From the NCBI GenBank assembly GCA_049585595.1, contig JBAVAG010000118.1, positions 1,889 through 65,888 of the forward strand: a stretch of DNA of 64,000 nucleotides, written 5' to 3'. A model generated the notes under the pieces. The model saw nothing but the letters and a program-made list of their open reading frames with translations, searched no databases and was not told the DNA's origin. Both the position numbers and the translations under genes were made by a program. The stretch comes from Desulfobaccales bacterium. GTDB lineage: Bacteria > Desulfobacterota > Desulfobaccia > Desulfobaccales > 0-14-0-80-60-11. Below are positions 7,023 to 20,983 of the stretch, one piece after another. Each line of letters begins with the position of its first letter. Position 1 is the stretch's first letter.

Positions 7023-9434
7023 CTAGCCGGCGACTTGCCGGTGGTCGGCACTCCCTTCATACATCTTCCAGGAGGCCTGGAAGGCCGCGGTAAAGGAGCG
7101 CTGCTTGACATGATCCCGAGCCGCCTGCCCCATTTCTCTCAACCTCTCCGGATCGGCCACCAGCAGATTGATGGCCTTGAAGAGCCCTTCCTCATCATTG
7201 GCCGGAACTATGACGCCGGTTTCCCCATCGATGACGTTCTCCTGTGGCCCCCCGGAATCGGTGACCACGACCGGAATGCCCGAAGCCTGCGCTTCCAGGA
7301 CCACATTGCCGAAGGTGTCGGTGGTGCTGGGGAAGACAAACAGGTCACAGGAGGCGTAGACCTGAGCCAGGTCCTCCCCTGCCAGATAGCCGGTAAAGGC
7401 GCAAGAGGGGCCCGCCAGCGCCCGCCGCATCTCTGTCAGATAGGGTCCGTCTCCCACGACGATCAATTTGAGCTCCGGGTGGCTGGGTAACAAGGTTTTG
7501 AAGACCTTGGCCAGGAGCGGCAAATTCTTCTCTTTGGATATCCGGCCCACGTAAAGGAGCTTCACCCCCTTCTTGATCTGATAGCACTTTTCCAACACCC
7601 CGTTGCGTTTGGCCGGATGGAACCGCTCGACATCCACTCCCCTGGGAAAGAGGCGGATCTTCTCCGGGTCGATCCCCTTCTGGTGCAATTCTTCAGCGGT
7701 GCTGCCGGAGGGCACAAAGACGAGATCCATCTGATTGTAAAACCAGATGATGTACTTCCACATCATCTCTTCCATAGCGGCATCACCCGTTAAATATTGA
7801 GTATATTGGGGCAGGGCGGTGTGATAAGTGCCCCAGATCGGCACCCTGAGCAGACGGGCCACCCCCAAGGCCGTAAGTCCCATGGGGCCCGGAGTGGCGG
7901 TCTTGATATGGGTAAAGTTCTGCTCATAACAATAGTTGAGGATTTGAAACAGAGGCGGATGGAAGAGTTTCTGTTCGGGGTATTCCGGTAACTGCAAGAC
8001 CCCGACGGGAGCGAAATTGCGAACCCCCGGCAGTTGCGGATGGGCCCCGGAATCGCAGGTGATAATGGTGTATCTCTTGTTGGCCCTGACCGCGGCCTCA
8101 GCCTGGCGCCGGAGAGTGAGTCCCACTCCGTTGACCTCATAAAAGGTGTCGGTAAAGTGCGCCAGGTTGAGTCCATTCTCTCGATTCTCAGGGCACTCAG
8201 AGGTGCGCCCCGAAAAACTTCGCAGGATTTCCGATCCGAGGCTCCGGTCCTTGGAGAAGGAAGAGAAGGCCGCCAGATAAGGAGTCAACCCCAGATAGAT
8301 CATCCCGGAAGACATGAGGGAATTAATCAAACCAAGGAAATTGGCCCCCCCCACCGCCTCGCGGAAATGTTCATGAAAGTGCTTCAAGATGGTGGTGGAG
8401 ATGTCATTGAGTATCTGGAACCACTGCATCCCGGGGCGGGTCGGCGACTTCTGCGGAGCCTTGATGGCTTCATTGACGATTAGAGACAGGAGTGGGTCGG
8501 TTTGGCTGCTTCTCGTGGAACTCCTGAAAAAATATTTAATCTTGTCCCGGTAATACTGATAGCGGGTGGGGATATGTTTAGGTTCTGAGCTGGTCTGCAG
8601 GAATCTTTCGAAAAAATTGATGAATAAGCTGGAACCGGCATACTTTCCCAGGTCGTATTTCTTTCTATAGAACTGATAAGCGATGCTATAGAGATTGTAA
8701 CCGAGCGTTATGGGCGTGGAGGCCTCCCCCTGGGGCCTGGCCTGGCCGACCTGGAGGCCGTGAAAGAAATGCTTTAAGGATCTGGCCCCCTCCACCCGGG
8801 TATACATCCGGGCAATGTTGAGAGAACTATGGTCATCGGAACCGCCGGTAAGATTCTTCTGCCAGGGGTTATGCATGCTGGGCGTGATGCCATACTTATC
8901 AGCCAATGCGTCCAGGTATTTCGGGGTGAGTTGGGACAACATGGCCTTGAGCCCTTCGTTCAAATGGCTATCCCTAGCCCCGTTCAGTTCGAAATTTTTG
9001 AAGAGCAGCAGAAATTTATCGAAATGGACCGGAGTCAAGCGATCGTTGACAGACCAAAAGGGATGGGCCAGAACGTGAGGGATCTGATTTTCTTCCAGAT
9101 AATGCACGAGGTCATAGATATTTTCCCTGGCCTGCTGCAGGTCTAGATGTTGTTTCTCATTAATATCGTAAACCAGGACGTGGGCCTTGCAGCGGTCCTC
9201 CGGGAAATAGGCGGTCAGTTCCTCGCTGATAAAGGTGTCGGGGTAGCCGGCGATTTCCAGGGAGCCGTCAATGACATTGTGGTCCGTAATGGTTACCCGG
9301 GACATGCCCAGCTTTTTGGCAAGGCGGTAGAGGGTCTGGGGCTCCGTATAACACTCCTGGCAGCCCAACTTTTGCAACACCCATTGGGAGGGTCGAGTGG
9401 AGTATTTGGAGTGTACGTGCAGATCGATCTTCAT
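7023..9434 (-). CDS. PHP-domain phosphoesterase fused to a GT4-family glycosyltransferase (803 aa)
   Basis: The N-terminus MKIDLHVHSKYSTRPS...ITDHNVIDG...HVLAHPF is PHP-type. The C-terminus KLLYVGRISKEKN...FVFPSTTDTFGNVVLEAQASGIPVVVTDSGGPQE is GT1/GT4-type with an EX7E region. Confidence 0.8.
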   Translation of the reverse strand: MKIDLHVHSKYSTRPSQWVLQKLGCQECYTEPQTLYRLAKKLGMSRVTITDHNVIDGSLEIAGYPDTFISEELTAYFPEDRCKAHVLVYDINEKQHLDLQQARENIYDLVHYLEENQIPHVLAHPFWSVNDRLTPVHFDKFLLLFKNFELNGARDSHLNEGLKAMLSQLTPKYLDALADKYGITPSMHNPWQKNLTGGSDDHSSLNIARMYTRVEGARSLKHFFHGLQVGQARPQGEASTPITLGYNLYSIAYQFYRKKYDLGKYAGSSLFINFFERFLQTSSEPKHIPTRYQYYRDKIKYFFRSSTRSSQTDPLLSLIVNEAIKAPQKSPTRPGMQWFQILNDISTTILKHFHEHFREAVGGANFLGLINSLMSSGMIYLGLTPYLAAFSSFSKDRSLGSEILRSFSGRTSECPENRENGLNLAHFTDTFYEVNGVGLTLRRQAEAAVRANKRYTIITCDSGAHPQLPGVRNFAPVGVLQLPEYPEQKLFHPPLFQILNYCYEQNFTHIKTATPGPMGLTALGVARLLRVPIWGTYHTALPQYTQYLTGDAAMEEMMWKYIIWFYNQMDLVFVPSGSTAEELHQKGIDPEKIRLFPRGVDVERFHPAKRNGVLEKCYQIKKGVKLLYVGRISKEKNLPLLAKVFKTLLPSHPELKLIVVGDGPYLTEMRRALAGPSCAFTGYLAGEDLAQVYASCDLFVFPSTTDTFGNVVLEAQASGIPVVVTDSGGPQENVIDGETGVIVPANDEEGLFKAINLLVADPERLREMGQAARDHVKQRSFTAAFQASWKMYEGSADHRQVAG

Positions 9435-9457
9435 AGTTCCCCCCTTTCTTTAATGGA

Positions 9458-10144
9458 TTAAGCGATTAAGACCGTCTCTCCGGCCCGGACTTTATCGCCC
9501 GGCCGGACCAGGATGCTCATCTCTGGCAGGAATGGCGCCACCAGGTCCACTTGCGAGCCGATGCGGATCATGCCGAAGACTTCACCCTTAGTTACCTGCT
9601 CCCCCGGGTTGACATAACTATCGATGCCTTTCACACTCTTCCCGGCGATTTGCACGACATAATAAGAGAGCGCCTCTCCCTTGAATCTGCCCTCCATATT
9701 GGTCACCACTCGTTCATTGTGGATAATGTGCCTCGAATTCTCATAAAAGGGGGCCCGCTTAAGCAGGGTCCGCCAATGCATGGGAGCCATGCAAAAATTC
9801 TTCACTATGGCTGGGTAGTGCCTGATAAAGTTGACCTTCCCGGGGAGCGGGGCCCGGTTGTAGTGGACATTGAAGGGGCTCATAAAGATGCCGATCAGGA
9901 TTTTGGGAGAGGGCAGGTCTTCTTTAACTATGTCGGTGAGAGTCGCCGACAGCCCCTGCTTGATTATTATTACCTCCTGCCGGGGGGCCACCCTGGTGAC
10001 ATAGACTACGGTGCCGTCGGCGGGACTGACCAGGGTCTCTCCCGGCGGCGGTACCCGCGGGGGGTTGCGAAAAAACCAGATGTAGCGCCAATATAGATAG
10101 CCCGTCAGTGTGGCAGTCAGGAGGGATATGGTTGGGAGGATCAA
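9458..10144 (-). CDS. psd: Phosphatidylserine decarboxylase family protein (short, archaeal-type)
   Basis: It has an N-terminal TM segment, FMSPFNVHYNRAP, and a GS self-cleavage-type motif in MIRIGSQVDLV. The TTG start overlaps the upstream stop (TTGA). Confidence 0.75.
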   Translation of the reverse strand: MILPTISLLTATLTGYLYWRYIWFFRNPPRVPPPGETLVSPADGTVVYVTRVAPRQEVIIIKQGLSATLTDIVKEDLPSPKILIGIFMSPFNVHYNRAPLPGKVNFIRHYPAIVKNFCMAPMHWRTLLKRAPFYENSRHIIHNERVVTNMEGRFKGEALSYYVVQIAGKSVKGIDSYVNPGEQVTKGEVFGMIRIGSQVDLVAPFLPEMSILVRPGDKVRAGETVLIA

Positions 10145-10836
10145 TGGAGCCTCTTCCAGGCGGAGGGGTCCACAACCCGGACCAGGGCGACGCCCGAGGA
10201 GAAGGGAAAATCGATCACCTCAAAGGAGGCCTCCTCCCGCTTGACGAATTTCAACCATTTCTTCACCCCCGCGTGCTTGACCAATTCCCTGAGGTAGATA
10301 TTGGTGTCGTGCAGAAAGATATAGGTATTCTTATGCGACTGCTCCAAGACCTTGATGAAATCGTATTTCACGTCTTTGTAGGCATGGCTGCCGTCTATGA
10401 AGGCCAGATTTAGGGGAGGCAATTTTAAATCCTGGAAACTGGGAAAAAACTCATCGCTGCGCATCTTATAATGAGTGATCAGGTTTTCTACGCCGAAGCG
10501 CCCGAAATGCGCTTTAACATGAGACTCATCGGTCCAGACGCCCCGTCCGCCTACGGTCATGAGGGGCCCATTCTTTAATAAAGAATAGGCCGGGTCGACA
10601 AAACTCAACCTGCCCCGGCCGTTGTCCTTTAGACCCAAGGCCAGACAAACAACGCTGAAGCCATATCCTGACCCTATCACTAAGACATGATCCGGTCTTA
10701 GGGCCCTGACTACCCCATAATACATAAAGCCGAACCCTAGGTTCAGTTCCCTGGTCTTTTCGTTGTGGCCAAAAGGCTTGGCAACTTTTAGGATATCCTT
10801 AAGAAGATCAGTACTTAAGCTAAAATCTCCCATCAT
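10141..10836 (-). CDS. Class I SAM-dependent methyltransferase (Methyltransf_24-like)
   Basis: VLVIGSGYGFSVVCLALGL (glycine-rich SAM loop) and AFIDGSHAYKDVKYDF. AGGAGGG lies upstream of ATGATG. Confidence 0.7.
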   Translation of the reverse strand: MMGDFSLSTDLLKDILKVAKPFGHNEKTRELNLGFGFMYYGVVRALRPDHVLVIGSGYGFSVVCLALGLKDNGRGRLSFVDPAYSLLKNGPLMTVGGRGVWTDESHVKAHFGRFGVENLITHYKMRSDEFFPSFQDLKLPPLNLAFIDGSHAYKDVKYDFIKVLEQSHKNTYIFLHDTNIYLRELVKHAGVKKWLKFVKREEASFEVIDFPFSSGVALVRVVDPSAWKRLH

Positions 10837-11590: not shown

Positions 11591-11896
11591 ATGGCTGTTA
11601 TGGATAATGGTCTGAAGGGCGCAGTTCCCAGTATTCTGGTGGTGTTGGGGGTGGCCCTGGCGGCCCCCATCGTTCTTCCCGCCGTGGCGGCGGTGTCCCG
11701 CCCGCTGGCCAAGACCCTGATCAGAGGCTATCTGACCTTGTCGGATATGGCCAAGGAGTTCGCGGCCGAGGCCGGGGAGCAGATCAGCGACCTGATGGCC
11801 GAGGTCCAGTCCGAACGCGCGGCAACCGCCACCGCCGAGGCGGCAGCCGCCACAGTGGAAGCGGTGGCCAAAACCAAAGTTAAACCAGGCAGTTGA
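11591..11896 (+). CDS. Small membrane protein, DUF5132-like (N-terminal TM helix plus Ala/Glu-rich helix)
   Basis: ATG at 11591 follows AAGGAGG. Product is MAVMDNGLKGAVPSILVVLGVALAAPIVLPAVAAVSRPLAKTLIRGYLTLSDMAKEFAAEAGEQISDLMAEV... The family name is from memory and needs HMM confirmation. Confidence 0.6.
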   Translation: MAVMDNGLKGAVPSILVVLGVALAAPIVLPAVAAVSRPLAKTLIRGYLTLSDMAKEFAAEAGEQISDLMAEVQSERAATATAEAAAATVEAVAKTKVKPGS

Positions 11897-11913: not shown

Positions 11914-12486
11914 ATGGAACTCGAGGGCTTCAAAGTCGTCCATGCCCTGCCGGGGCGGGTGCGTCTCCAGGTCGCCAAGTTTAAGGGAAACCCGGCCCTG
12001 GCCCGCCAGGCTCAGGGAAAGCTCGCCAAGGTGCCGGGCATCACGCAGGTCGAGGCTAAACCAGGAACCGGGAGCCTGTTGATCCACTACGACCAGGACA
12101 AATTACTCTCCACGGCCTCCCTGGAAATCCTATCTGGGACCTTGGGGGAAATCTTTCCCGAAATCGAAGTCCTCACCCTGGCCACCGGGTTAGCCTCTCT
12201 GGCGGAGAATCCCGGCGCCGGGACCGGCTCGCCGGTGGCCGCCAGCCTGACCGGTTCCCTTAAGGCCGCCAATACCCGGCTGGCCAAACTTACCGGGGGG
12301 CTGGACCTGAAGCTCCTGCTGCCGCTCACCCTGATCTTCTTCGGCTTACGCAGGCTTTGGGCCGCCGACAAGGTCGCTTCCCCTTCCTGGTTCGACTATC
12401 TCTGGTTTGGCTTTGCCAGCTTTGTCATGCTGAACCGCGGCCTGGTGGAAGGCGGTACTGAGACCACAGCGGCAAAGAAAGACTGA
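11914..12486 (+). CDS. Cysteine-less HMA-like (HMA_2-type) domain protein with a C-terminal hydrophobic region
   Basis: MELEGFKVVHALPGRVRLQVAKFKGNPALARQAQGKLAKVPGITQVEAKPGTGSLLIHYDQ..., then LDLKLLLPLTLIFFGL and WFDYLWFGFASFVMLN hydrophobic segments. Confidence 0.65.
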   Translation: MELEGFKVVHALPGRVRLQVAKFKGNPALARQAQGKLAKVPGITQVEAKPGTGSLLIHYDQDKLLSTASLEILSGTLGEIFPEIEVLTLATGLASLAENPGAGTGSPVAASLTGSLKAANTRLAKLTGGLDLKLLLPLTLIFFGLRRLWAADKVASPSWFDYLWFGFASFVMLNRGLVEGGTETTAAKKD

Positions 12487-12682
12487 TTGGGACAGGTTAA
12501 GTTTCTTGGGGAAGGATTACCGGCAGGAGCTGAAAGGGGTAAAGAGTAGAGATGAGCCCAGGAAACGGGCTTTTGGCTAGGGTCATTGAGGGTGGCGGCG
12601 CCTGGGTCTCACCTTTTCAGAGGAAAATGGAGGAAAAAGCCCCCCCGGCGCCCATTTGCACTCCGTAAATTCTGTTGGCGCC

Positions 12683-12796
12683 TCAGGGATATTCGAGATA
12701 TTCGGCGCCACAATTACGGCATTTAATTTCCATCAACCAATAACGTCCCCAGAAACCCAGGGCCACCCCGATAATCAGGCTGATCACATACCACAT
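12683..12796 (-). CDS. Unannotated 37-aa peptide: one TM helix plus a CxxC
   Basis: AGGAGG lies 6 nt upstream of the ATG at 12796, which is 22 nt after the stop of the upstream HMA-like gene. Product is MWYVISLIIGVALGFWGRYWLMEIKCRNCGAEYLEYP. Confidence 0.5.
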   Translation of the reverse strand: MWYVISLIIGVALGFWGRYWLMEIKCRNCGAEYLEYP

Positions 12797-12818
12797 GATT
12801 TCCCTCCTGCGGGGCTGC

Positions 12819-13190
12819 TCAAATCAGGCCTCCGACCAACCGGCTCAGAGCGACCTCCATCAAGGTGGCGGCCACGACCGAGGTCACTTTTTCCACCATC
12901 CCCTGCGGAGCAGATTGGGGGCTCGCAGTGCCGCTGGCCAGCGGACCGGCATGAGATAAATACCCCGATTCCCTTAATGATAAGATGATGCGCCACTGGT
13001 CGATGCAGTGGGGATTGTAAAGGACCAAGACGTTGCCGGTGGTGGGATTGGCGGAAACGGATTCGATGCCGGCAAATTGCTGCAGGTGCTGCTCAAGTTC
13101 CTGGGCCTGGTCGGCCGCCCCCTTAATCCTCGGAATCTTGATCCGCAACCTCCCTGCCAGGGCGTGTACGTAAGCTGAATCCACGTGCAT
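12819..13190 (-). CDS. Cysteine-less HMA-like domain protein with a hydrophobic C-terminal tail
   Basis: MHVDSAYVHALAGRLRIKIPRIKGAADQAQELEQHLQQFAGIESVSANPTTGNVLVLYNP..., followed by the VTSVVAATLMEVALSRLVGGLI tail. Confidence 0.65.
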   Translation of the reverse strand: MHVDSAYVHALAGRLRIKIPRIKGAADQAQELEQHLQQFAGIESVSANPTTGNVLVLYNPHCIDQWRIILSLRESGYLSHAGPLASGTASPQSAPQGMVEKVTSVVAATLMEVALSRLVGGLI

Positions 13191-13267
13191 GGCAACCTCC
13201 GATTTAGCAAGTGTTTTGAGTTGAATTGTTACCCATGAAAGTTTCGATTTAATATTTTTAATGTTAG

Positions 13268-13283
13268 AATTTGGTTAATTTTG
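13268..13283. promoter_or_regulatory. 16-nt motif AATTTGGTTAATTTTG (copy 2)
   Basis: It is identical to 10942-10957. It lies in the divergent region between the HMA-like gene (start 13190) and phoH2 (start 13415). Confidence 0.4.
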
Positions 13284-13414
13284 TCTAATCCCTTAAACTA
13301 TCAGGACAATTATCATTTAGCCGCGCAGCTTCTCCTATGGGAAAAACCCTTCCCAAAATACCCGGAATATGGCAAAATAGCAGCGAATGAGTCAATAGAT
13401 GTCAGAGGGGGCAA

Positions 13415-14716
13415 ATGAAAAAAATCTATGTTTTGGATACCAACGTTTTATTGCACGATCCGGAATCCTTATTTGCTTTCGAAGACAACTCCATTGTTTT
13501 GCCGCTTTCAGTGATAGAGGAATTAGACCGCACTAAGAGGAGGGGTGATGAGGTGGGCAGAAATGCCCGGGAGGTTTCCAGAAGATTGGATGAATTGAGG
13601 TTGACAGGCCGCCTGGCGGAAGGGGTCCAACTCCCGGGAGGGGGCACCATCCGCATTGAATTAAACGGCACTAAATCATACGACCCGTTGAACGGGGTCG
13701 ATTTAAACATCATTGACAATAAAATCCTGGCCCTGGCCTATCATCTAAAGAGCAATGGAAATAACCCGCTGGTTTTGGTTACCAAAGATCTAAATCTGAG
13801 GATCAAGGCAGATGTCCTGGGGATTCCCACTGAAGATTTTTACAGCGATAAAGTAGATTATTGTAGGTTATATAACGGAGTTCAGGAATCATTTCTTGCT
13901 CAAGCTGAAATAGACCGGTTTTATCAGGATGGTTCGCTCGACTCCGCCCAGAATGGCCTTCATCCCAACCAATTCTGTATCATCAAATCCAGTGAAATTC
14001 CCTCCATTTCCGCCCTGGCCAAATACTGTGATAATAAAATCCATAAGCTCTCATATGACGGTAAGGCGGCTTATGGCATCAAAGCCTTGAATAAAGAACA
14101 GAGATTTGCCCTGGAACTGCTGCTGGATGATCAAATCAAGATCGTTACCTTAGTCGGCAAGGCCGGGACCGGGAAGACCATCCTGGCGTTGGCCGCCGGG
14201 CTGGAACGAGTCTTTGAGGATAACAGCAGATTTAACCGCCTCCTCATCACCAGGCCCATTGTGCCCTTGGGCAATGACCTGGGCTATCTTCCCGGGGATA
14301 AGGAAGACAAGATTCGCCCCTGGATGCAGCCCATATATGATAACTTGGAGTATCTCTGCAACGAGCATATCCGGTCCAACGGCTCCACCGAGTATTTGCT
14401 CAGCAGCGGTAAGATTGAATTGGAGGCCCTGACTTATATCCGGGGCCGCAGCATCCCTCGCCAGTTCATTATTTGCGATGAAAGCCAGAATCTCAGCCCC
14501 CATGTGATCAAAACCATCCTTACCCGGGTGGGCCGGGGCAGCAAGATCGTCTTCACCGGAGACCCGGAACAGATCGATCACCCGTATCTGGACGCTTCTT
14601 CCAATGGCTTGAGTTATTTGGTGGAGAAGATTAAAGACGAGAAGATTTCCGGCCACATAACCTTGATAAAGGGAGAAAGGTCCGGGGTCGCTGAATTGGG
14701 GGCTAGATTATTATGA
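13415..14716 (+). CDS. PhoH2-type protein (N-terminal PIN domain plus PhoH ATPase)
   Basis: YVLDTNVLLHDP...VIEELD is PIN-type. VTLVGKAGTGKTILAL (Walker A) and FIICDESQN (Walker B) are PhoH-type. The gene is visibly lower in GC than its neighbours. Confidence 0.85.
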   Translation: MKKIYVLDTNVLLHDPESLFAFEDNSIVLPLSVIEELDRTKRRGDEVGRNAREVSRRLDELRLTGRLAEGVQLPGGGTIRIELNGTKSYDPLNGVDLNIIDNKILALAYHLKSNGNNPLVLVTKDLNLRIKADVLGIPTEDFYSDKVDYCRLYNGVQESFLAQAEIDRFYQDGSLDSAQNGLHPNQFCIIKSSEIPSISALAKYCDNKIHKLSYDGKAAYGIKALNKEQRFALELLLDDQIKIVTLVGKAGTGKTILALAAGLERVFEDNSRFNRLLITRPIVPLGNDLGYLPGDKEDKIRPWMQPIYDNLEYLCNEHIRSNGSTEYLLSSGKIELEALTYIRGRSIPRQFIICDESQNLSPHVIKTILTRVGRGSKIVFTGDPEQIDHPYLDASSNGLSYLVEKIKDEKISGHITLIKGERSGVAELGARLL

Positions 14717-14814
14717 TTGGCAGTTGGAAATTCATTGTTCACTTTCCCTACTGGCTTTTCAGTGGAAGTTGCTCCCGCCAGCATCGTTTGGCGATATATA
14801 TCGTCACCCCACCG

Positions 14815-14842
14815 TTGTATGCCTTCCCATAACCTCTATAAT
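14815..14842 (+). promoter_or_regulatory. Sigma70-like promoter candidate for the HMA-like / repeat protein / ATPase operon
   Basis: TTGTAT (14815-14820), a 16-nt spacer, then TATAAT (14837-14842), about 75 nt upstream of the start at 14917. Confidence 0.35.
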
Positions 14843-14916
14843 ATCTAGACTTTACTTGGGTCATAACTATCCTTTCATTATCCCCAGGGTGACAGCTCTC
14901 CAAAAAGGGGAAGGAC

Positions 14917-15204
14917 TTGCAGGACATCGAGATCATCGCCTCCCGGCCGGGCCAGCTCAGTCTGACCATAATCCGGGTTAAGGGCAATGAAGTCCTGGCG
15001 CGGGAGGTGCAGGACCGCTTGGGGGCTATCAGAGGGATTCACCAGGTGGAAGCGGACGCCGTCCAGGGACTGGTGTCCATCGACTACGACAGACAGCGGT
15101 TATCCTCCGTCAGTTTTCTGCTGCAATTAAAGGAGACCTTTTCCTCCCTATTTCCGGAAATCAGCGTAACTCAACTGGCTGCCACGATAAGCCGCAGTCT
15201 GTGA
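14917..15204 (+). CDS. Stand-alone cysteine-less HMA-like domain protein (95 aa, no TM)
   Basis: The TTG start follows GGGGAAGGA. Product is MQDIEIIASRPGQLSLTIIRVKGNEVLAREVQDRLGAIRGIHQVEADAVQGLVSIDYDRQ... Confidence 0.55.
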   Translation: MQDIEIIASRPGQLSLTIIRVKGNEVLAREVQDRLGAIRGIHQVEADAVQGLVSIDYDRQRLSSVSFLLQLKETFSSLFPEISVTQLAATISRSL

Positions 15205-15328
15205 AAGCCTTCCCTGAAGCCCGCCAAGGGGAGGTCCTGCCGGCTCATTGCCGGAGTGGCATCACAGACCTGGAAATGTTTGCTTTAAATTACTACCTTG
15301 AAGTTAACCAAAATTTTTGGAGGTCCAT

Positions 15329-15994
15329 ATGTCCCCCCAGGAAACTAAAGAGAGCAAGAGTATCGGCAAGATGCTGGGCGAAGCCGGCACCACCGTGAAA
15401 GACGGCCTGGTCGACAGCCTCAAGGGGCTGAACGAGATTGAAGCCCAAATCGTCACTCTGGCGAGAAACACCGTAACCGACGTCCTGAAGGGCACCGGCA
15501 GCGTGGCCAACGAGACCATCAATGTCAGCAAGGACGTCTTTAAAGGGGCGTTGAAGGCCAGCGAAGAGATGGGCTCCAGCCTGGTGGTGACCACCAAGGA
15601 TGTGGCCAAGGGCATTCTCCTGGGCCTTACCGATGTGGGCGGAGATGTGGGAAAGTCCGCCGCCCAACTGGCCAAAGGCGCGGTCAAAGGGGCCGGGGAA
15701 GTCGGCGGCGACGTGGCCCAGGTGGCCAAAAGCGCCGTAACCGGAGTCATTGAGGCCACTTCCGAGATCGGCGGCAATGTGGGCGAAGCCGCCAAGGCGG
15801 CGGCGGGTGGCGCCATTGAAGCCGCCGGCAGCCTGGGTCAGTCGGCGGTCAAGGCCGTCAGCGACATCCTGGTGGGTGCGGTCTCCGGCCTCAAGGACGT
15901 GGCTTGCGCCGCCTGGCCGAAATCGAAGGCCGGGTCGCCACCGGACTCCAAGCCGGAGGCCGTTGCCCATCCGGAAAAGAAGACGAAGGGGTAA
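15329..15994 (+). CDS. Repeat protein: about 8 tandem 22-residue Gly/Ala/Val/Lys-rich units and a Lys/Pro-rich tail
   Basis: ATG at 15329 follows GGAGG. Units include KSAAQLAKGAVKGAGEVGGDVA, QVAKSAVTGVIEATSEIGGNVG and EAAKAAAGGAIEAAGSLGQSAV. Confidence 0.65.
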   Translation: MSPQETKESKSIGKMLGEAGTTVKDGLVDSLKGLNEIEAQIVTLARNTVTDVLKGTGSVANETINVSKDVFKGALKASEEMGSSLVVTTKDVAKGILLGLTDVGGDVGKSAAQLAKGAVKGAGEVGGDVAQVAKSAVTGVIEATSEIGGNVGEAAKAAAGGAIEAAGSLGQSAVKAVSDILVGAVSGLKDVACAAWPKSKAGSPPDSKPEAVAHPEKKTKG

Positions 15995-16055
15995 GCCTGG
16001 CCGCGGCATCCCCATTAGCTGAACAGAGTTGACTAGGCAAGGTTATCCGGCCCCA

Positions 16056-19000
16056 ATGGTCGAAGCGATCCATACCGCGGTGGCGGGCAGGGCGAGGTTT
16101 AAGGTTGAGGGCCTGTACCGCTCCAAATCCCTGGAGAAGCTGCTGGAGTCGCGACTGGCGCGGCTGCAGGATATTTCCCTGGCCTCAGCCAACGCCCTCA
16201 CCGGCAACGTTCTGGTCTGCTACAATTCGGATAATAATCCCCAAACTATTGCGGCCTTAATTGAAGGGATCGTCTCCGATTGCCTGAAGTCCCCGCAGCC
16301 GGTCCCTTCATTTCCTGTCCCCGCTAAAGCCGGGGCTGCCATCGGGCTGGAAGATCGGGCCACCGCCTTAGACAGATTCAAGGGTCTCTTTGCCTATCCG
16401 CTGGAGCAGCCGGGTCAACCCTGGCACCGGCTGAAGGCCGAGGCGGTGTTGGCCCAATGGCAGACCTCCAGGGAAAAGGGGTTGTCCCTCAAGGCCGTCC
16501 AGGGAAACCGCCAGAAATACGGCCTCAATCTCCTGCCGGAAGCCGAGCCCCGGTCCGGCTGGGACATCTTCCTGGTCCAGTTTCAATCACTCCCGGTGGC
16601 CCTCCTGGGAGCGGCCGCCGGCCTTTCCATCTTCACCGGCGGGCTGGCCGATGCCGTGTTGATTGCCGGCGTAGTGGTCCTCAATGCCTTCATCGGCTAC
16701 AAAACCGAAAGCGAATCCGAAAAAACCATTCGCTCTCTGCAAACCCTGGTGCGGCCTGCCGCCCTGGTCTTGCGGGAAGGAGGGCTTCGCGAAATTCCCT
16801 CCGAAGAAGTGACCCCGGGAGACCTCCTGGTGCTGCGCCCCGGCACTTACGTGGCCGCCGATGCGCGCCTGGTCGAGGCTAACCACCTGTCCGTGGATGA
16901 GTCGGCCCTGACTGGGGAAAGCCTGCCCGTGAATAAAGATACCCGGCCCCTGAAACGGGATCATATCCCCTTGGGAGACCGGATCAACCTGGTCTTCATG
17001 GGCACCCTGGTGACCGGCGGTGAAGGTTTGGCGGTGGTGGTGGCCACCGGGATTTATACTGAAATCGGCCTGATCCAGTCTCTGATCGGCGAAGCCGCCA
17101 GCCCGGAAACCCCCATGGAGAGGCAGCTCGGCCAGTTGGGGAACCAACTGGTCCTCCTCTGTGGCGGAGTTTGCGGGGTGGTGTTCGTTATGGGATTTAT
17201 GTGGGGCTTCGGTTGGCTGGAGTTGCTGCGCACCTCCATCTGCCTGGCGGCGGCCGCGGTGCCGGAAGGGCTGCCCACCACGGCCACCACCACCCTGGCC
17301 CTGGGTATCCGCGACATGCGCAAGCACCATGTCTTGATCCGCCACCTGAACGCGGTGGAGACCCTCGGTTCGGTGCAGACTGTCTGCCTGGATAAGACCG
17401 GGACCATCACCCGCAACCAGATGTCCGTGCTCCAAATCTTTACCGGCATGAGGACTATCAAGGTGGCGGACGGGCAATTCCTGGGGCCCGCCGGGCCGAT
17501 TCCCCCCTTAGCCTGTGAGGAATTGGAGCAGCTCCTGAAGATCTCGGTGCTGTGCAACGAAATCGAAATCTATCAGGAAGGCGGGGATTATGTTCTCCGG
17601 GGGACTCCCACGGAGGCGGCCCTGGTCCATCTGGCCATCCTGGTGGGTCTCGACGTCACCGACCTGAGGAGACGGTATCCCCTTTTAAAAGTCAATCACC
17701 GTTCGGAAAACCGCCTGTTCATGGGCACGTTGCATAAGGATCCGCCCGCCGGCAGTCTTTTTGCAATCAAAGGCAACCCCCTGGAAGTTATGGCGCTCTG
17801 TTCCTGGCATCTCCAGGATGGCCGGAAAATGCCGCTCACCGATGAAGACCGGCAGCGCCTCGAAGCTGAGAACGAGGAGATGGCGGGGGACGCCCTGCGG
17901 GTCCTGGGGCTGGCCTATGCCCTGGGTCCGGATGAGTCCGTGGCTGAGAACGATAACCTGGTCTGGCTGGGCATGGTGGGCATGGCCGATCCCATCCGGG
18001 AAGGGGTGGGCGAGGCGATTCGGGCCTTCCATCGGGCGGGGATCGAGACGGTGATGATCACCGGCGACCAGAGTCCCACCGCCTATGCCATCGGCCAGGA
18101 ACTGGACCTGAGCCAGGGAGGCCCCTTGGAGATCCTGGACGCCACCCACCTGGCGGAGATCGAGCCGGAGGTCTTGCGGGCTCTGGTCAAGAGGGCCCAG
18201 GTCTTTGCCCGGGTCAGCCCGTCCCATAAGCTTGGGATAGTCCAGGCCTTGCAAGGGGCCGGCAAGGTGGTGGCCATGACCGGCGACGGCATCAACGACG
18301 GCCCGGCCCTCAAGGCCGCGGACGTGGGCATCGCCATGGGCCGCACCGGCACCGATATCGCCCGGGAAGTGGCGGACGTGGTCCTGGAGGAGGATAATCT
18401 CGATACCTTGATCATAGCCATCCGGGACGGCCGCACCATCTATATCAACATCCGCAAGTCGGTCCATTTCTTCCTGGCCACCAATCTCAGCGAGATCATG
18501 TTGACCTTTGTGGCTATGGCCGTCGGCCTGGGGTCTCCCCTGACCGCGGCCCAGCTCCTCTGGATCAACCTGATTTCCGATATCTTTCCCGGGTTGGCCC
18601 TGGCGATGGAAGCGCCGGAGCCTGATATCCTGGACCGCCCGCCCCGTGATCCCGCCCGGCCGATCTTCACCGGCAGCGACTATAAGAGAATGGCCTTCGA
18701 GTCCGGGGCCATCACCACCGGGGCCTTGGGGGCCTATGGCTATGGCCTGATGCGCTACGGCCTGGGGGCTCAAACCAGCACCCTGGCCTTTCACAGCCTC
18801 ACCACCGGGCAGCTCTTGCACGCCATCAGTTGCCGTTCTGATACCCATGGCATCTTTAGCCCGGGGAAATTGCCTCCCAACCGCTACCTGACCCTGGCCC
18901 TGGGGGGCTCGCTGGCGGTCCAATTCTTGACCGCGGCGGTCCCAGGATTGAGAAGCCTGCTGGGGCTCGCCCCGGTGGGCCTGTTGGATGGCCTGGTGAT

Positions 19001-19097
19001 TTCCGGCAGCGCCCTGCTGCCCCTGGTGGTAAACGAAGCCACCAAGAAACCGCCGGTCAATGGTGAAAACGAAGTCCCGGAGCCGGCCCTGGAGTGA
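16056..19097 (+). CDS. P-type ATPase, type II (PEGLP, Ca2+-ATPase-like) with an N-terminal cysteine-less HMA-like domain
   Basis: Motifs: TGES (LTGESLPV), AAAVPEGLPTTATTTLALG, CLDKTGTITRNQM, MITGDQ, TGDGINDGPALKAADVGIAMG. The N-terminus is MVEAIHTAVAGRARFKVEGLYRS...ANALTGNVLVCYN. An alternative TTG start lies at 16029. Confidence 0.9.
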   Translation: MVEAIHTAVAGRARFKVEGLYRSKSLEKLLESRLARLQDISLASANALTGNVLVCYNSDNNPQTIAALIEGIVSDCLKSPQPVPSFPVPAKAGAAIGLEDRATALDRFKGLFAYPLEQPGQPWHRLKAEAVLAQWQTSREKGLSLKAVQGNRQKYGLNLLPEAEPRSGWDIFLVQFQSLPVALLGAAAGLSIFTGGLADAVLIAGVVVLNAFIGYKTESESEKTIRSLQTLVRPAALVLREGGLREIPSEEVTPGDLLVLRPGTYVAADARLVEANHLSVDESALTGESLPVNKDTRPLKRDHIPLGDRINLVFMGTLVTGGEGLAVVVATGIYTEIGLIQSLIGEAASPETPMERQLGQLGNQLVLLCGGVCGVVFVMGFMWGFGWLELLRTSICLAAAAVPEGLPTTATTTLALGIRDMRKHHVLIRHLNAVETLGSVQTVCLDKTGTITRNQMSVLQIFTGMRTIKVADGQFLGPAGPIPPLACEELEQLLKISVLCNEIEIYQEGGDYVLRGTPTEAALVHLAILVGLDVTDLRRRYPLLKVNHRSENRLFMGTLHKDPPAGSLFAIKGNPLEVMALCSWHLQDGRKMPLTDEDRQRLEAENEEMAGDALRVLGLAYALGPDESVAENDNLVWLGMVGMADPIREGVGEAIRAFHRAGIETVMITGDQSPTAYAIGQELDLSQGGPLEILDATHLAEIEPEVLRALVKRAQVFARVSPSHKLGIVQALQGAGKVVAMTGDGINDGPALKAADVGIAMGRTGTDIAREVADVVLEEDNLDTLIIAIRDGRTIYINIRKSVHFFLATNLSEIMLTFVAMAVGLGSPLTAAQLLWINLISDIFPGLALAMEAPEPDILDRPPRDPARPIFTGSDYKRMAFESGAITTGALGAYGYGLMRYGLGAQTSTLAFHSLTTGQLLHAISCRSDTHGIFSPGKLPPNRYLTLALGGSLAVQFLTAAVPGLRSLLGLAPVGLLDGLVISGSALLPLVVNEATKKPPVNGENEVPEPALE

Positions 19098-19132: not shown

Positions 19133-20332
19133 ATGAAAAGTGACTTTATCTTCATGTCGGAGTCGGTAACCGAGGGGCACCCGGATAAGATCTGCGATCA
19201 GATCAGCGATGCCATCTTGGATCATTTCCTGGCGCAAGACCCCCAGGCCCGGGTGCGGGCCGAATGCGCCGTGGCCACTTCCATCCTGTTCATTGCCACC
19301 CGGTTTGTTTCCGAAATTAAAGTCGATATCCCCAGGGTGGCCCGCAAGTTCCTCAGCCAGCTCGGCTATACGAAACCCGACTTCGACGCCCGCACCTGCA
19401 GCGTCTTGACCAGTCTCCAAGAATATCCGCCGGATGCGGATCTCTTTTTCAACGAGCACCGGCTGACCGATAAAGAAGTGGAAAACTTCCACGTGCGGCA
19501 GCAGGCCACAGTCTTCGGTTTTGCCTGCCGCCAGACCGCGGCCTTGATGCCCCTGCCCATTTGGTTGGCGCACCGGCTGGCCCGGCAACTCGTCGCGGCC
19601 CGGGTTCAGAATCTGGCGCCCTATCTGTCGCCGGACGGCAAGACCACGGTGGGGGTGGAGTATAGAAACCGCCGGCCCCATCGGATTCAGAGCGTTACGG
19701 TCCTTGCCAGCGGCTCCAAGGCCGCCTGCCAGGAAATATCCGAGAAGCGCTTGCATGACGATATCCGGGAAGTGGTGATCAAGCCGGCCTTCGCCGATGA
19801 AGAGCTGAAACCGGATAATCAGACCCTGATCTTTGTCAATCCGGAGGACCACCTCATAATGGGCGGCCCTGCGGTGCATTCCGGGCTCACGGGCCGCAAA
19901 TCCGACGTTGACACCTATGGCGAATATGCCCGGCACAGCGGCAACGCCTTGAGCGGCAAGGACCCCATGCGCATCGATCGGGTGGGGGCTTATGCGGCGC
20001 GCTACGCCGCCAAGAATGTGGTGGCGGCCGGACTGGCGGAGGCATGCGAGGTCCAGTTGAGCTATTCCATCGGCTTTTCCCGGCCAGTCAGTATTCAGGT
20101 GGAAACCTTTGGCACCGGCAAGTTGACGGACGAGAAACTGGCCGACCGGCTGGAGCGGCACTTCGATTTTCGCCTGGCCGCCATCCTGCGGGATTTCAAC
20201 CTGAGGCACCTTCCCGCCCTGCATAAAGGAGGTTTTTACCGGAAGCTGGCGACCTATGGCCACGTGGGGCGCCTCGACCTTGATCTGCCCTGGGAAGTTA
20301 CCGACAAGGCGGGGGCGCTCAAAGGACGGTAA
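19133..20332 (+). CDS. S-adenosylmethionine synthetase (MetK) paralogue with substituted catalytic motifs
   Basis: SESVTEGHPDKICDQISDAILD, GLTGRKSDVDTYGEYARHSGNALSGKDPMRIDRVGAYAARY and KLATYGHVGR are MetK-like. However, GAGDQG is replaced by RQQATV, and GGGAFSGKD by SGNALSGKD. Confidence 0.75.
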   Translation: MKSDFIFMSESVTEGHPDKICDQISDAILDHFLAQDPQARVRAECAVATSILFIATRFVSEIKVDIPRVARKFLSQLGYTKPDFDARTCSVLTSLQEYPPDADLFFNEHRLTDKEVENFHVRQQATVFGFACRQTAALMPLPIWLAHRLARQLVAARVQNLAPYLSPDGKTTVGVEYRNRRPHRIQSVTVLASGSKAACQEISEKRLHDDIREVVIKPAFADEELKPDNQTLIFVNPEDHLIMGGPAVHSGLTGRKSDVDTYGEYARHSGNALSGKDPMRIDRVGAYAARYAAKNVVAAGLAEACEVQLSYSIGFSRPVSIQVETFGTGKLTDEKLADRLERHFDFRLAAILRDFNLRHLPALHKGGFYRKLATYGHVGRLDLDLPWEVTDKAGALKGR

Positions 20333-20983
20333 ATGCAAAATCTACACCTGGTAGCCATTCTGTTACTGGCATTTGCCAGTAATCTTGACAATGTCGGGGT
20401 GGGCGTTTCTTATGGCATGAGGAAGATCAACATCCCCTTTACCTCCAACCTGCTCATTGCGGTAGTTACCTCAATCGGCACCCTTTTGTCAGTACTACTC
20501 GGCAAGAGCATCTATCTTTTCATAAGCGCGGAAATGACCGGTTTATTGGGGGGAGGCATCATCATCGTCGCCGGGATCTGGGTACTCTTCCAGGAGAAAT
20601 TCATGCACCGGGGCCAGGAGCCCCAGGAAGAGACGCCAATGGTTGCCGAAACCGGTTCTCCCGGATTTAGTTTTCGGCAAATTGTCTCGATTCTCGACAA
20701 CCCGATTAATGCCGACAAAGATTTCTCCGGGCATATCGACCTCAAGGAAGCCGTCGCCTTATCCCTGGGCCTGACCATCAATAATATCCCCAATGGCGTT
20801 GGCGCCGGGATGGTGGGCGGCGGCGCCATTTTAATGACGAGTGCCGTCTTCGTATTCAGCATTGTGACCATCTGGATTGGGATATCAGGCGGTCTTTTAG
20901 GATTTAAATGGCTGGGCAAGTTAACCGGGCTGATCGCCGGCTTGATTCTCATCGGCGTCGGCCTTTACGAAATTTTCTTTTAA
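20333..20983 (+). CDS. YtaF-like membrane protein (MntP/DUF204 superfamily, putative divalent-cation efflux)
   Basis: LLAFASNLDNVGVGVSYGMRKINIPF and a second half, LSLGLTINNIPNGVGAGM, with about 6 hydrophobic segments. The ATG directly abuts the metK-like TAA. Confidence 0.65.
   Translation: MQNLHLVAILLLAFASNLDNVGVGVSYGMRKINIPFTSNLLIAVVTSIGTLLSVLLGKSIYLFISAEMTGLLGGGIIIVAGIWVLFQEKFMHRGQEPQEETPMVAETGSPGFSFRQIVSILDNPINADKDFSGHIDLKEAVALSLGLTINNIPNGVGAGMVGGGAILMTSAVFVFSIVTIWIGISGGLLGFKWLGKLTGLIAGLILIGVGLYEIFF

Follow-up and report, generated by a model that had tools for sequence, protein, structure and literature searches.

Four CoBaHMA domain copies in and beside a P2A-like P-type ATPase gene of a Desulfobaccales bacterium

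Four related domains without a cysteine pair

We have analysed a 64,000-nucleotide stretch of DNA (the window) from a metagenome-assembled genome of Desulfobaccales (Thermodesulfobacteriota), in which four open reading frames (ORFs) contain a homologous domain of about 65 residues. Profile comparisons indicate that all four are authentic CoBaHMA domains that arose by ancient duplication; CoBaHMA is an already published branch of the heavy metal associated (HMA) superfamily. One copy heads a P-type ATPase and the other three are encoded upstream of it. The domains are likely to be docking or regulatory modules of the pump that bind no metal.

Protein A (11914-12486, plus strand, in an ORF starting at 11893 or 11914) has 190 amino acids (aa), with an N-terminal CoBaHMA domain, a linker and a two-helix membrane hairpin. 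Protein B (12819-13190, minus strand; 123 aa) carries a CoBaHMA domain followed by a conserved hydrophobic C-terminal helix, and protein C (14917-15204, plus strand; 95 aa) is a soluble CoBaHMA-fold paralogue of the first 95 residues of A. Domain D (16056-16283, plus strand) is the N-terminal CoBaHMA domain of a P-type ATPase ORF (16029-19097; 1022 aa). An earlier note, made from the letters of this DNA, had quoted peptide strings of A, B, C and the ATPase N-terminus as four related domains, and all four strings were found where it had placed them.

The relationship itself is borne out. The Pfam family PF19991, with a gathering cut-off of 30 bits, matches A with 71.3 bits (E = 1.1e-19), B with 48.6 bits (E = 1.1e-12) and D with 33.1 bits, and C stands just under the cut-off with 28.0 bits. 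From 77 related loci we gathered 29-34 orthologues of each protein and built four profiles. In hhalign comparisons these profiles match one another with E-values of 4e-24 (A-B), 5e-29 (A-C), 4e-17 (A-D), 1e-13 (B-C), 3e-17 (B-D) and 2e-8 (C-D). Even single sequences give significant BLASTP matches in five of the six pairs (3e-20 to 5e-7); the remaining pair, C-D, gives E = 0.32. That value, together with the Pfam score of C, is what could be said for a chance or compositional resemblance of unrelated short ORFs, some of them not genes. Such a resemblance is hardly credible and was rejected in view of the profile statistics, with E-values down to 5e-29, the 29-34 orthologues per ORF, whose gene order is conserved even where identity falls to about 35-50%, and the AlphaFold2 (AF2) model of C, whose predicted local distance difference test score (pLDDT) is 83.8. 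A profile search with C also speaks against it, matching 485 clusters (50% identity) at E <= 1e-3.

Direct reading of the sequences finds no CxxC in A, B, C or D, in agreement with the earlier note. The loop that holds GMxCxxC in HMA domains reads K-G-N/K-G-A/Y-R-S in the four copies, and cysteines occur in them only as single residues, namely C62 of B, which is not conserved, and that of L-V-C-Y-N in D. The canonical HMA family PF00403 (cut-off 24.8 bits) gives 14.2 bits for B, 14.8 bits for C and no match for A and D. NCBIfam has no family for A and yields for B and C weak CopZ/CsoZ-like matches far under the cut-offs.

The domain is a known family with a basic signature

The domain belongs to an existing Pfam family, PF19991 (HMA_2, "Heavy metal associated domain 2"), which has been published as CoBaHMA. 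A dedicated description of the CoBaHMA family was reportedly given by Gaschignard et al. in 2024 (Proteins 92:776). According to a 2026 preprint, the dedicated 2024 paper proposes a regulatory role for the domain, possibly through anionic lipids. PF19991 was equated with CoBaHMA ("Conserved Basic residues HMA") in a preprint on Microcystis (Bruley et al., bioRxiv 10.1101/2024.07.07.602159). The name itself derives from the N-terminal domain of W-type calcyanin and denotes an HMA-superfamily fold without the cysteine pair, with basic residues in strands beta1 and beta2 and a histidine in an added strand called beta0 (Benzerara et al. 2022, PMC8890360). An orthologue 96% identical to A is named "HMA2 domain-containing protein" by NCBI. 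The four copies are thus additional members of a known domain family, and the domain finding alone changes little, being a rediscovery of a named family already in public annotation. The cassette around them is uncharacterised.

The beta1 strand of the family has the pattern R-x-R-x-[KR], and A, B and D each retain the signature of a beta0 histidine and a beta1 G-R-x-R. The domain of A comprises aa 1-80 (nucleotides (nt) 11914-12153), with H10 and G14-R15-V16-R17. The match of A spans positions 8-152 of the 154 in the PF19991 profile, and A has the archetypal architecture of that family. In B the domain covers aa 4-66 (nt 12993-13181), with H9 and G-R-L-R-I-K. Domain D reads H-T-A-V-A-G-R-A-R-F-K-V; PF19991 covers residues 14-85 of the 1022-aa ORF, for which the ATG at 16056 is the likely start. 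After the domain comes a Pro-rich linker, about 45 residues long.

Alignments of homologues show that the positions shared by the four copies are conserved in the 29-34 orthologues per group. In the orthologues of A, B and D (32-34 each), hardly any variation is seen in the histidine, G-R-x-R or T-G-x-[LV]-L. Among 28 orthologues of A, H10, P13, G14, R15, V16, R17, G25, G53, S54 and L56 are invariant, and the orthologues of B and D (alignments of 33 and 32) retain H-x(3,4)-G-R-x-R-[IF]-[KR] and T-G-x-[LIV]-L. The two strand motifs that the earlier note had ascribed to all four copies therefore hold for A, B and D, and the arginine pair is missing from the orthologues of C. The mean net charge of the domain core is +5.8 in A, +4.4 in D, +0.6 in B and -2.1 in C. 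In a tree of the domains, the B clade (support 0.86) and the clade of pump domains (0.99) each cover several phyla. Overall, the reading of that note was right about the HMA superfamily, the missing metal site and the loss of arginines in C; the published family behind it, CoBaHMA/PF19991, and the R-rich motif known from ferrosomes had gone unrecognised.

Predicted fold

Fold models were made for A (with 28 orthologues) and C (with 22 orthologues). Both AF2 models have the order beta0-beta1-alpha1-beta2-beta3-alpha2 and then one more helix, and no beta4 is predicted in either. The model of A has strands at residues 6-12 (beta0), 15-20, 43-49 and 54-59 and helices at 27-38, 67-80, 132-150 and 159-173, the last two of which are long and hydrophobic. 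The elements of C follow in the same order, with a predicted template-modelling score (pTM) of 0.74 beside the pLDDT given above. The best small-domain matches found by Foldseek in the PDB are CopZ, MerP and metal-binding domains of ATPases, with template-modelling (TM) scores, normalised by the target, of 0.63-0.74 and root-mean-square deviations (rmsd) of 2.3-3.7 Å. For C these include CopZ 6ff2 (TM 0.74, rmsd 2.4) and MerP 1osd (TM 0.71, rmsd 2.3). The compact matches are mostly HMA domains and also include CopZ 2qif, RAN1 MBD3 and the Menkes metal-binding domains. KipI-N 2kwa was also among the matches, and this is the structure by which the authors of the calcyanin study placed beta0 (PMC8890360). 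Full-length A gave weak matches, with RNA-polymerase subunit L/Rpb11 at the top and a high rmsd of 8-13 Å; given the compact matches to HMA domains, we set these aside as noise at the level of the fold.

Pfam and the models together place the domains in the HMA superfamily. The beta-alpha-beta-beta-alpha-beta arrangement that had been proposed from the spacing of the motifs is consequently upheld as to the HMA-like fold, which structure prediction returned for both A and C, and is to be amended by an extra beta0 and by the lack of beta4 in the models.

Protein C is a non-basic offshoot of protein A

The earlier note had observed that the soluble copy lost the arginine pair, and this proves to be a common feature of C orthologues. 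Protein C has P-G-Q-L-S-L in place of R-x-R, it lacks the beta0 histidine, and its core is net negative. Among 29 orthologues of C, none has the R-x-R pair and 26 have no basic residue at either position; the other three keep one arginine, at the first position. The beta0 histidine is present in two of the 29, and Asp47 and Glu81 are nearly invariant. Against the profile of A, hhalign aligns C over 93 columns with 99.7% probability (E = 9e-27), including the FPEI helix after the domain. In the tree of the domains the C clade has a support of 0.99 and groups with A-type domains at 0.91.

The 485 clusters mentioned above were retrieved by the C profile from 1.84 billion cluster representatives. 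Among the best 150 of them, 127 have both basic residues and 101 of these have the histidine as well; 16 have neither basic residue, and none of the 16 has the histidine. This census identifies C as a small, derived, non-basic branch. On the evidence of profiles, tree and census, C is a conserved offshoot of A from which the histidine and the arginine pair were lost. As a natural non-basic variant, it offers a contrast with A, B and D that could reveal the function of the basic face.

Probable membrane attachment of proteins A and B

Three of the copies had been described as stand-alone domains. Protein C is indeed soluble; A has a membrane hairpin and B a conserved hydrophobic C-terminal helix. 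In A, a linker predicted with low confidence or as disordered leads to the hairpin at about aa 126-173 (nt 12289-12432). Protein B ends in a hydrophobic helix at aa 101-123 (nt 12822-12890) with an invariant Glu and the pattern ..VAxTLMEVALxRLVxALI-COOH. This helix is preserved from Desulfobaccales to Nitrospira and Salinibacter, the Glu being often followed by Arg or Gln. It might serve as a tail anchor that buries a charge, or else in docking. Directly downstream of B lies a micro-ORF of 37 codons (12683-12796, minus strand; MWYVISLIIGVALGFWGRYWLMEIKCRNCGAEYLEYP), with one transmembrane helix and the CxxC-type motif CRNCG. It is retained in at least 11 related loci (E from 1e-16 to 1e-23) and is probably in one transcription unit with B.

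The pump that carries domain D

The core of the ATPase (16422-19097, plus strand) is P2A-like and has DKTGT, PEGLP (M4), N-L-S-E (M5) and N-L-I-S-D (M6). Its Pfam domains are E1-E2_ATPase, Cation_ATPase_N, Cation_ATPase_C and Hydrolase. The best NCBIfam models are the PMR1-type TIGR01522 (604 bits, cut-off 798) and the SERCA-type TIGR01116 (508 bits, cut-off 703), both of which score under their equivalog cut-offs. Among solved structures the nearest are Listeria LMCA1 (E = 1.3e-143) and then SPCA1. Homology to solved Ca2+-ATPases starts only at residue 141. From these relationships the substrate of the pump would be Ca2+ or Mn2+.

CoBaHMA proteins accompany P-type ATPases in several phyla

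We examined the linkage in loci of 12 kb or more that had been retrieved with A as the query and with one genome per species; there are 57 of them, and they represent several phyla. A P-type ATPase lies near the A-type protein in 55 of the 57 loci, and in 48 a pump has its own CoBaHMA domain. At least three CoBaHMA ORFs are present in 46 loci and DUF5132 in 44. A P2A-like pump is found in 30 loci, from Desulfobaccales and relatives, a Nitrospira, a gammaproteobacterium, a Rubripirellula, and one bacterium each of the Beijerinckiaceae and Solibacteraceae. The remaining loci have P1B pumps passing TIGR01525, including those of cultured Nitrospira moscoviensis, Salinibacter, Microseira (a cyanobacterium), Bacillus/Neobacillus and Myxococcus. 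The same kit thus serves at least two classes of P-type ATPase, P2A-like and P1B. These results suggest that the CoBaHMA proteins and DUF5132 are the regular accessories of a P-type ion pump. The earlier proposal of a joint action of stand-alone and fused copies gains support from this very strong conservation of synteny across phyla, and the docking partner of a copy may be the pump, another copy or the membrane.

Two features of the P1B pumps are recorded here in their own right. Many of those adjacent to A-type genes (at L047, L048, L057 and other loci) have no cysteine in transmembrane segment 4 and read IDYGTGIR, DFGTG or DFATG at the usual CPC site. Bacillus and Spirochaete versions have DYVCG or DYSCG plus HNxxT, near the FezB signature discussed below.

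The cassette has a conserved order at 50-70% identity, consisting of a lipid operon and a PadR gene in the opposite direction, DUF5132, A, B on the opposite strand, C, a repeat protein, the ATPase and a MetK-like gene. The DUF5132 gene (11592-11896, plus strand) is co-operonic with A and likely starts at the ATG at 11592, after an AAGGAGG site; its product matches PF17195 with 30.7 bits (cut-off 25). It has an N-terminal transmembrane helix (LGVALAAP, GxxxA), a conserved RPLAK..IKG and an acidic helix, AEAGEQxxDLxAE, with a mean net charge of -2.3 in an alignment of 64 orthologues. The PadR gene (minus strand) is next to it. The lipid operon (7023-10836, minus strand) is divergent to the cassette and encodes a GT4 glycosyltransferase fusion, a PS-decarboxylase-like protein and a Methyltransf_24 protein; it is kept beside the cassette in most Desulfobaccales-type loci and recurs in one gammaproteobacterial locus (L062). 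Just upstream of the pump gene, a protein of 225 aa with a Gly/Ala/Val/Lys 22-mer repeat (15317-15994, plus strand) has no Pfam match. It is found in 28 of the 30 cassettes with P2A-like pumps, always immediately upstream of the pump. In 28 loci, drawn from several phyla, the gene after the P2A-like pump is the MetK-like one (19133-20983, plus strand), the orthologues of which have all three S-AdoMet synthetase Pfam domains; in the window its stop directly adjoins the start codon of an MntP-like gene. A PIN-PhoH gene (13415-14716, plus strand) lies between B and C. It occupies this gap only in the nearest relatives of the window and is missing from more distant cassettes, a distribution that suggests insertion into the cluster.

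PF19991 has seven matches in the whole genome, four of them within the window. The further CoBaHMA genes encode a P1B pump with an ACPCA motif (C70:68439-70547), a paralogue of B of about 118 aa (C25:54144-54443) and a Lys/Pro-rich protein with a C-terminal CoBaHMA domain (C16:11586-11762), which is followed by two DUF5132 genes.

CoBaHMA domains in loci with the ferrosome signature

Ferrosome (fez) gene clusters contain a protein, FezB, defined as a P1B-6 ATPase by D[Y/F]SCA and HNxxT, whose N-terminus bears an "R-rich motif" of the form RxR or RxRxR. FezC combines an HMA annotation at its N-terminus with two transmembrane helices, FezA has one hydrophobic N-terminal helix with GxxxG, and fez clusters encode more R-rich proteins, some soluble and some in the membrane; related non-FezB P1B pumps, such as CtpC, likewise have R-rich N-termini (Grant et al., bioRxiv 10.1101/2020.01.10.902569). 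A search of 301 genomes of the phylum for the fez signature returned six pumps with DYSCA and HNxxT, and the N-termini of all six match the CoBaHMA profile. In five of the six loci (L105, L106, L109, L111 and L113) a small CoBaHMA ORF adjoins the pump (E <= 7e-10), and the sixth (L112) has a divergent upstream ORF with a weaker match (E = 7e-4). Four neighbours and two pump N-termini from these loci were compared with Pfam, and PF19991 matches the neighbours with 38-47 bits and the N-termini with 19.6 and 25.6 bits, under the 30-bit cut-off. Because the pumps and their neighbours match the CoBaHMA profile or PF19991, the R-rich motif of ferrosome proteins very probably corresponds to strand beta1 of CoBaHMA.

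Four of these loci were extended (L116-L119). Two of the four have a divergent upstream ORF with Y-V-V-H-x-M-E-G-R-x-R-L-R-H followed by a hydrophobic C-terminal region; by eye the ORF looks like FezC, though a simple hydropathy count gave no transmembrane segment. In all four, the gene just upstream of the pump, which is the position of FezA, encodes a protein with one transmembrane helix that matches Pfam DUF6110 with 20-28 bits. It also aligns with the DUF5132 profile (hhalign 90%, E = 1.6e-6, 43 columns, helix KPLA..DLxAE), its Pfam label being DUF6110 and not DUF5132. DUF5132 and DUF6110 may therefore be one superfamily. In the literature searched, no work on ferrosomes also mentions CoBaHMA or calcyanin, and a single paper mentions DUF5132.

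Possible roles of the domains

All copies are expected to be cytoplasmic, since P-type ATPases have their N-terminus on that side of the membrane and a signal peptide is absent from every copy. Domain D would be tethered at the cytoplasmic N-terminus of the pump by the Pro-rich linker, A would be held at the membrane by its two-helix hairpin, and B is probably held there by its hydrophobic C-terminal helix. The role is thus likely that of a cytoplasmic, membrane-tethered module and not that of a metal chaperone, and the domains would hand over no soft metals. In the reading that we favour, the exposed basic sheet face of A, B and D would bind an anionic partner at the membrane surface, an interaction that would serve in the assembly or regulation of the pump complex. 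The partner could be anionic lipid head groups, as in the published proposal mentioned above, or, as our own alternative, the co-conserved acidic helix of DUF5132. Protein C, which keeps the fold and has a negative core, would act as a non-binding adaptor, cap or competitor. While a docking or regulatory role of some kind seems likely to us, we attach far less confidence to any particular ligand of the basic face.

Several points weigh against this interpretation. The literature searched reports no measured binding, localisation or interaction for any CoBaHMA domain. That H10, R15, R17 and K24 form one surface patch is presumed from net charges and the i/i+2 spacing in the strand. The model of A is of moderate confidence, its domain having a pLDDT of 73-80. 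Foldseek returned weak E-values, which range from 4e-3 to 0.1 and never reach 1e-3, and the fold claim therefore stands on Pfam and the models jointly. As A was the query, the linkage figures describe A-type proteins and not all CoBaHMA proteins, and the fez clusters were recognised by signature motifs and gene position, not by named FezA, FezB or FezC sequences. Finally, the invariant histidine and the acidic C copy leave room for the binding of a hard cation.

This last point leads to the view that the domains are chaperone-like carriers of a hard cation (Ca2+, Mn2+ or Fe2+), bound by the histidine and carboxylates and delivered to the pump as CopZ delivers to CopA. Stand-alone and pump-fused copies of an HMA-superfamily domain mirror CopZ/CopA, the beta0 histidine of A, B and D is invariant, the core of C is net negative, Asp47 and Glu81 being nearly invariant there, and the partners are always ion pumps. 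However, the metal-site loop reads K-G-N/K-G-A and has no conserved pair of ligands, the most conserved residues are arginines, which would repel cations, and PF00403 gives about 14 bits against 24.8. Moreover, the same domain occurs with P2A-like, CPC-type P1B, Cys-free DYGTG P1B and FezB-type pumps, and a role tied to one ion is disfavoured by pumps of such different ion classes. The occurrence of the kit across pump classes argues instead for an ion-independent role, such as regulation, targeting or assembly. We regard cation delivery as highly improbable.

A different view is that the basic face binds phosphate, polyphosphate or carbonate, as part of a mineral-storing machine homologous to the ferrosome kit and equipped with a Ca-type pump. 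Three types of component are common to the fez-signature clusters, namely a CoBaHMA pump, membrane and soluble CoBaHMA proteins, and a DUF5132/DUF6110-like protein with one transmembrane helix, and the iron of ferrosomes is described as an iron-phosphate mineral in a published abstract. CoBaHMA heads W-type calcyanin, a marker of intracellular Ca-carbonate formation (PMC8890360; 10.1101/2024.07.07.602159), and in Microcystis the calcyanin gene ccyA is flanked by, and co-expressed with, genes for DUF5132, a CoBaHMA-hairpin protein and a Ca2+/H+ exchanger. The window cassette adds the 22-mer repeat protein and the lipid-modifying operon. On the other hand, the pump is P2A-like and not P1B-6, no inclusion is reported in Desulfobaccales, and the domains are expected in the cytoplasm whereas the mineral would be luminal. 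The R-rich N-termini on non-FezB P1B pumps such as CtpC imply that the domain is not organelle-specific. We consider this view unlikely. Quite unlikely, too, is the picture of a pump-class-independent kit homologous to FezA/FezB/FezC that recruits or gates a P-type pump at an internal lipid-bounded compartment. Here it would combine a Ca-type P2A pump, a coat-like repeat protein and a lipid-remodelling operon into an as yet unseen calcium (phosphate or carbonate) storage body, with the acidic helix of DUF5132 as the ligand of the basic face and C as a charge-reversed regulator.

Comparison with known systems

The canonical HMA domains of PF00403 (CopZ, MerP, Atx1 and the N-termini of CopA, ZntA and ATP7A/B) share with the window domains the ferredoxin-like fold and the occurrence as stand-alone and pump-fused copies, and they are the best structural matches. 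The window domains differ from them in having no GMxCxxC loop, an extra beta0, conserved residues that are basic and a PF00403 score far below the cut-off. Within the CoBaHMA family, A, B and D carry the signature and A fills the whole Pfam model, whereas in C the fold is kept and the histidine and the arginine pair are gone. The types known in this family include single-domain proteins, fusions with a DUF454-Cter-like two-helix hairpin, as in A, and fusions with membrane transporters.

In Microcystis aeruginosa PCC 7806, the neighbourhood of ccyA contains DUF5132 proteins, a CoBaHMA-hairpin protein, a further CoBaHMA protein and a Ca2+/H+ exchanger, and ccyA is co-expressed with three of these genes, namely that of DUF5132 at position -1 and those of the exchanger and the CoBaHMA-hairpin protein (10.1101/2024.07.07.602159). 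The window resembles this locus in that DUF5132 and CoBaHMA proteins are encoded beside a Ca2+ transporter, in the window a putative one. The transporter is a Ca2+/H+ exchanger there and a P-type ATPase here, and calcyanin has GlyZip repeats, a C-terminal domain that is found in none of the A, B, C and D proteins. We therefore rejected an identity with calcyanin (CcyA) for these four proteins, the rest of the genome not having been searched for ccyA; there is no triple GlyZip, and A ends in the hairpin, B in one helix and C without any extension.

The fez clusters are similar to the window in their pump with an N-terminal RxR domain (G-R-A-R-F-K in D), in a membrane protein composed of the domain and two transmembrane helices (A), in further copies (B and C) and in a small protein with one transmembrane helix encoded just upstream, in which DUF5132 has GxxxA and FezA has GxxxG. 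Unlike FezB, the window pump is P2A-like (PEGLP, 10-transmembrane type) and lacks D[YF]SCA and HNxxT; since it is not of the P1B-6 class, membership of the cassette in the fez clusters was rejected. The 22-mer repeat protein and the MetK-like gene were not found in the fez-signature loci searched. Ferrosomes are lipid-bounded metal granules, and no granules are known for the organism of the window. One and the same domain appears to underlie Pfam HMA_2, CoBaHMA and the R-rich motif of ferrosome proteins, and their DUF5132 and FezA-position DUF6110 partners appear to be related. If true, the one-domain link would tie together the lines of research on iron ferrosomes and on Ca-carbonate granules.

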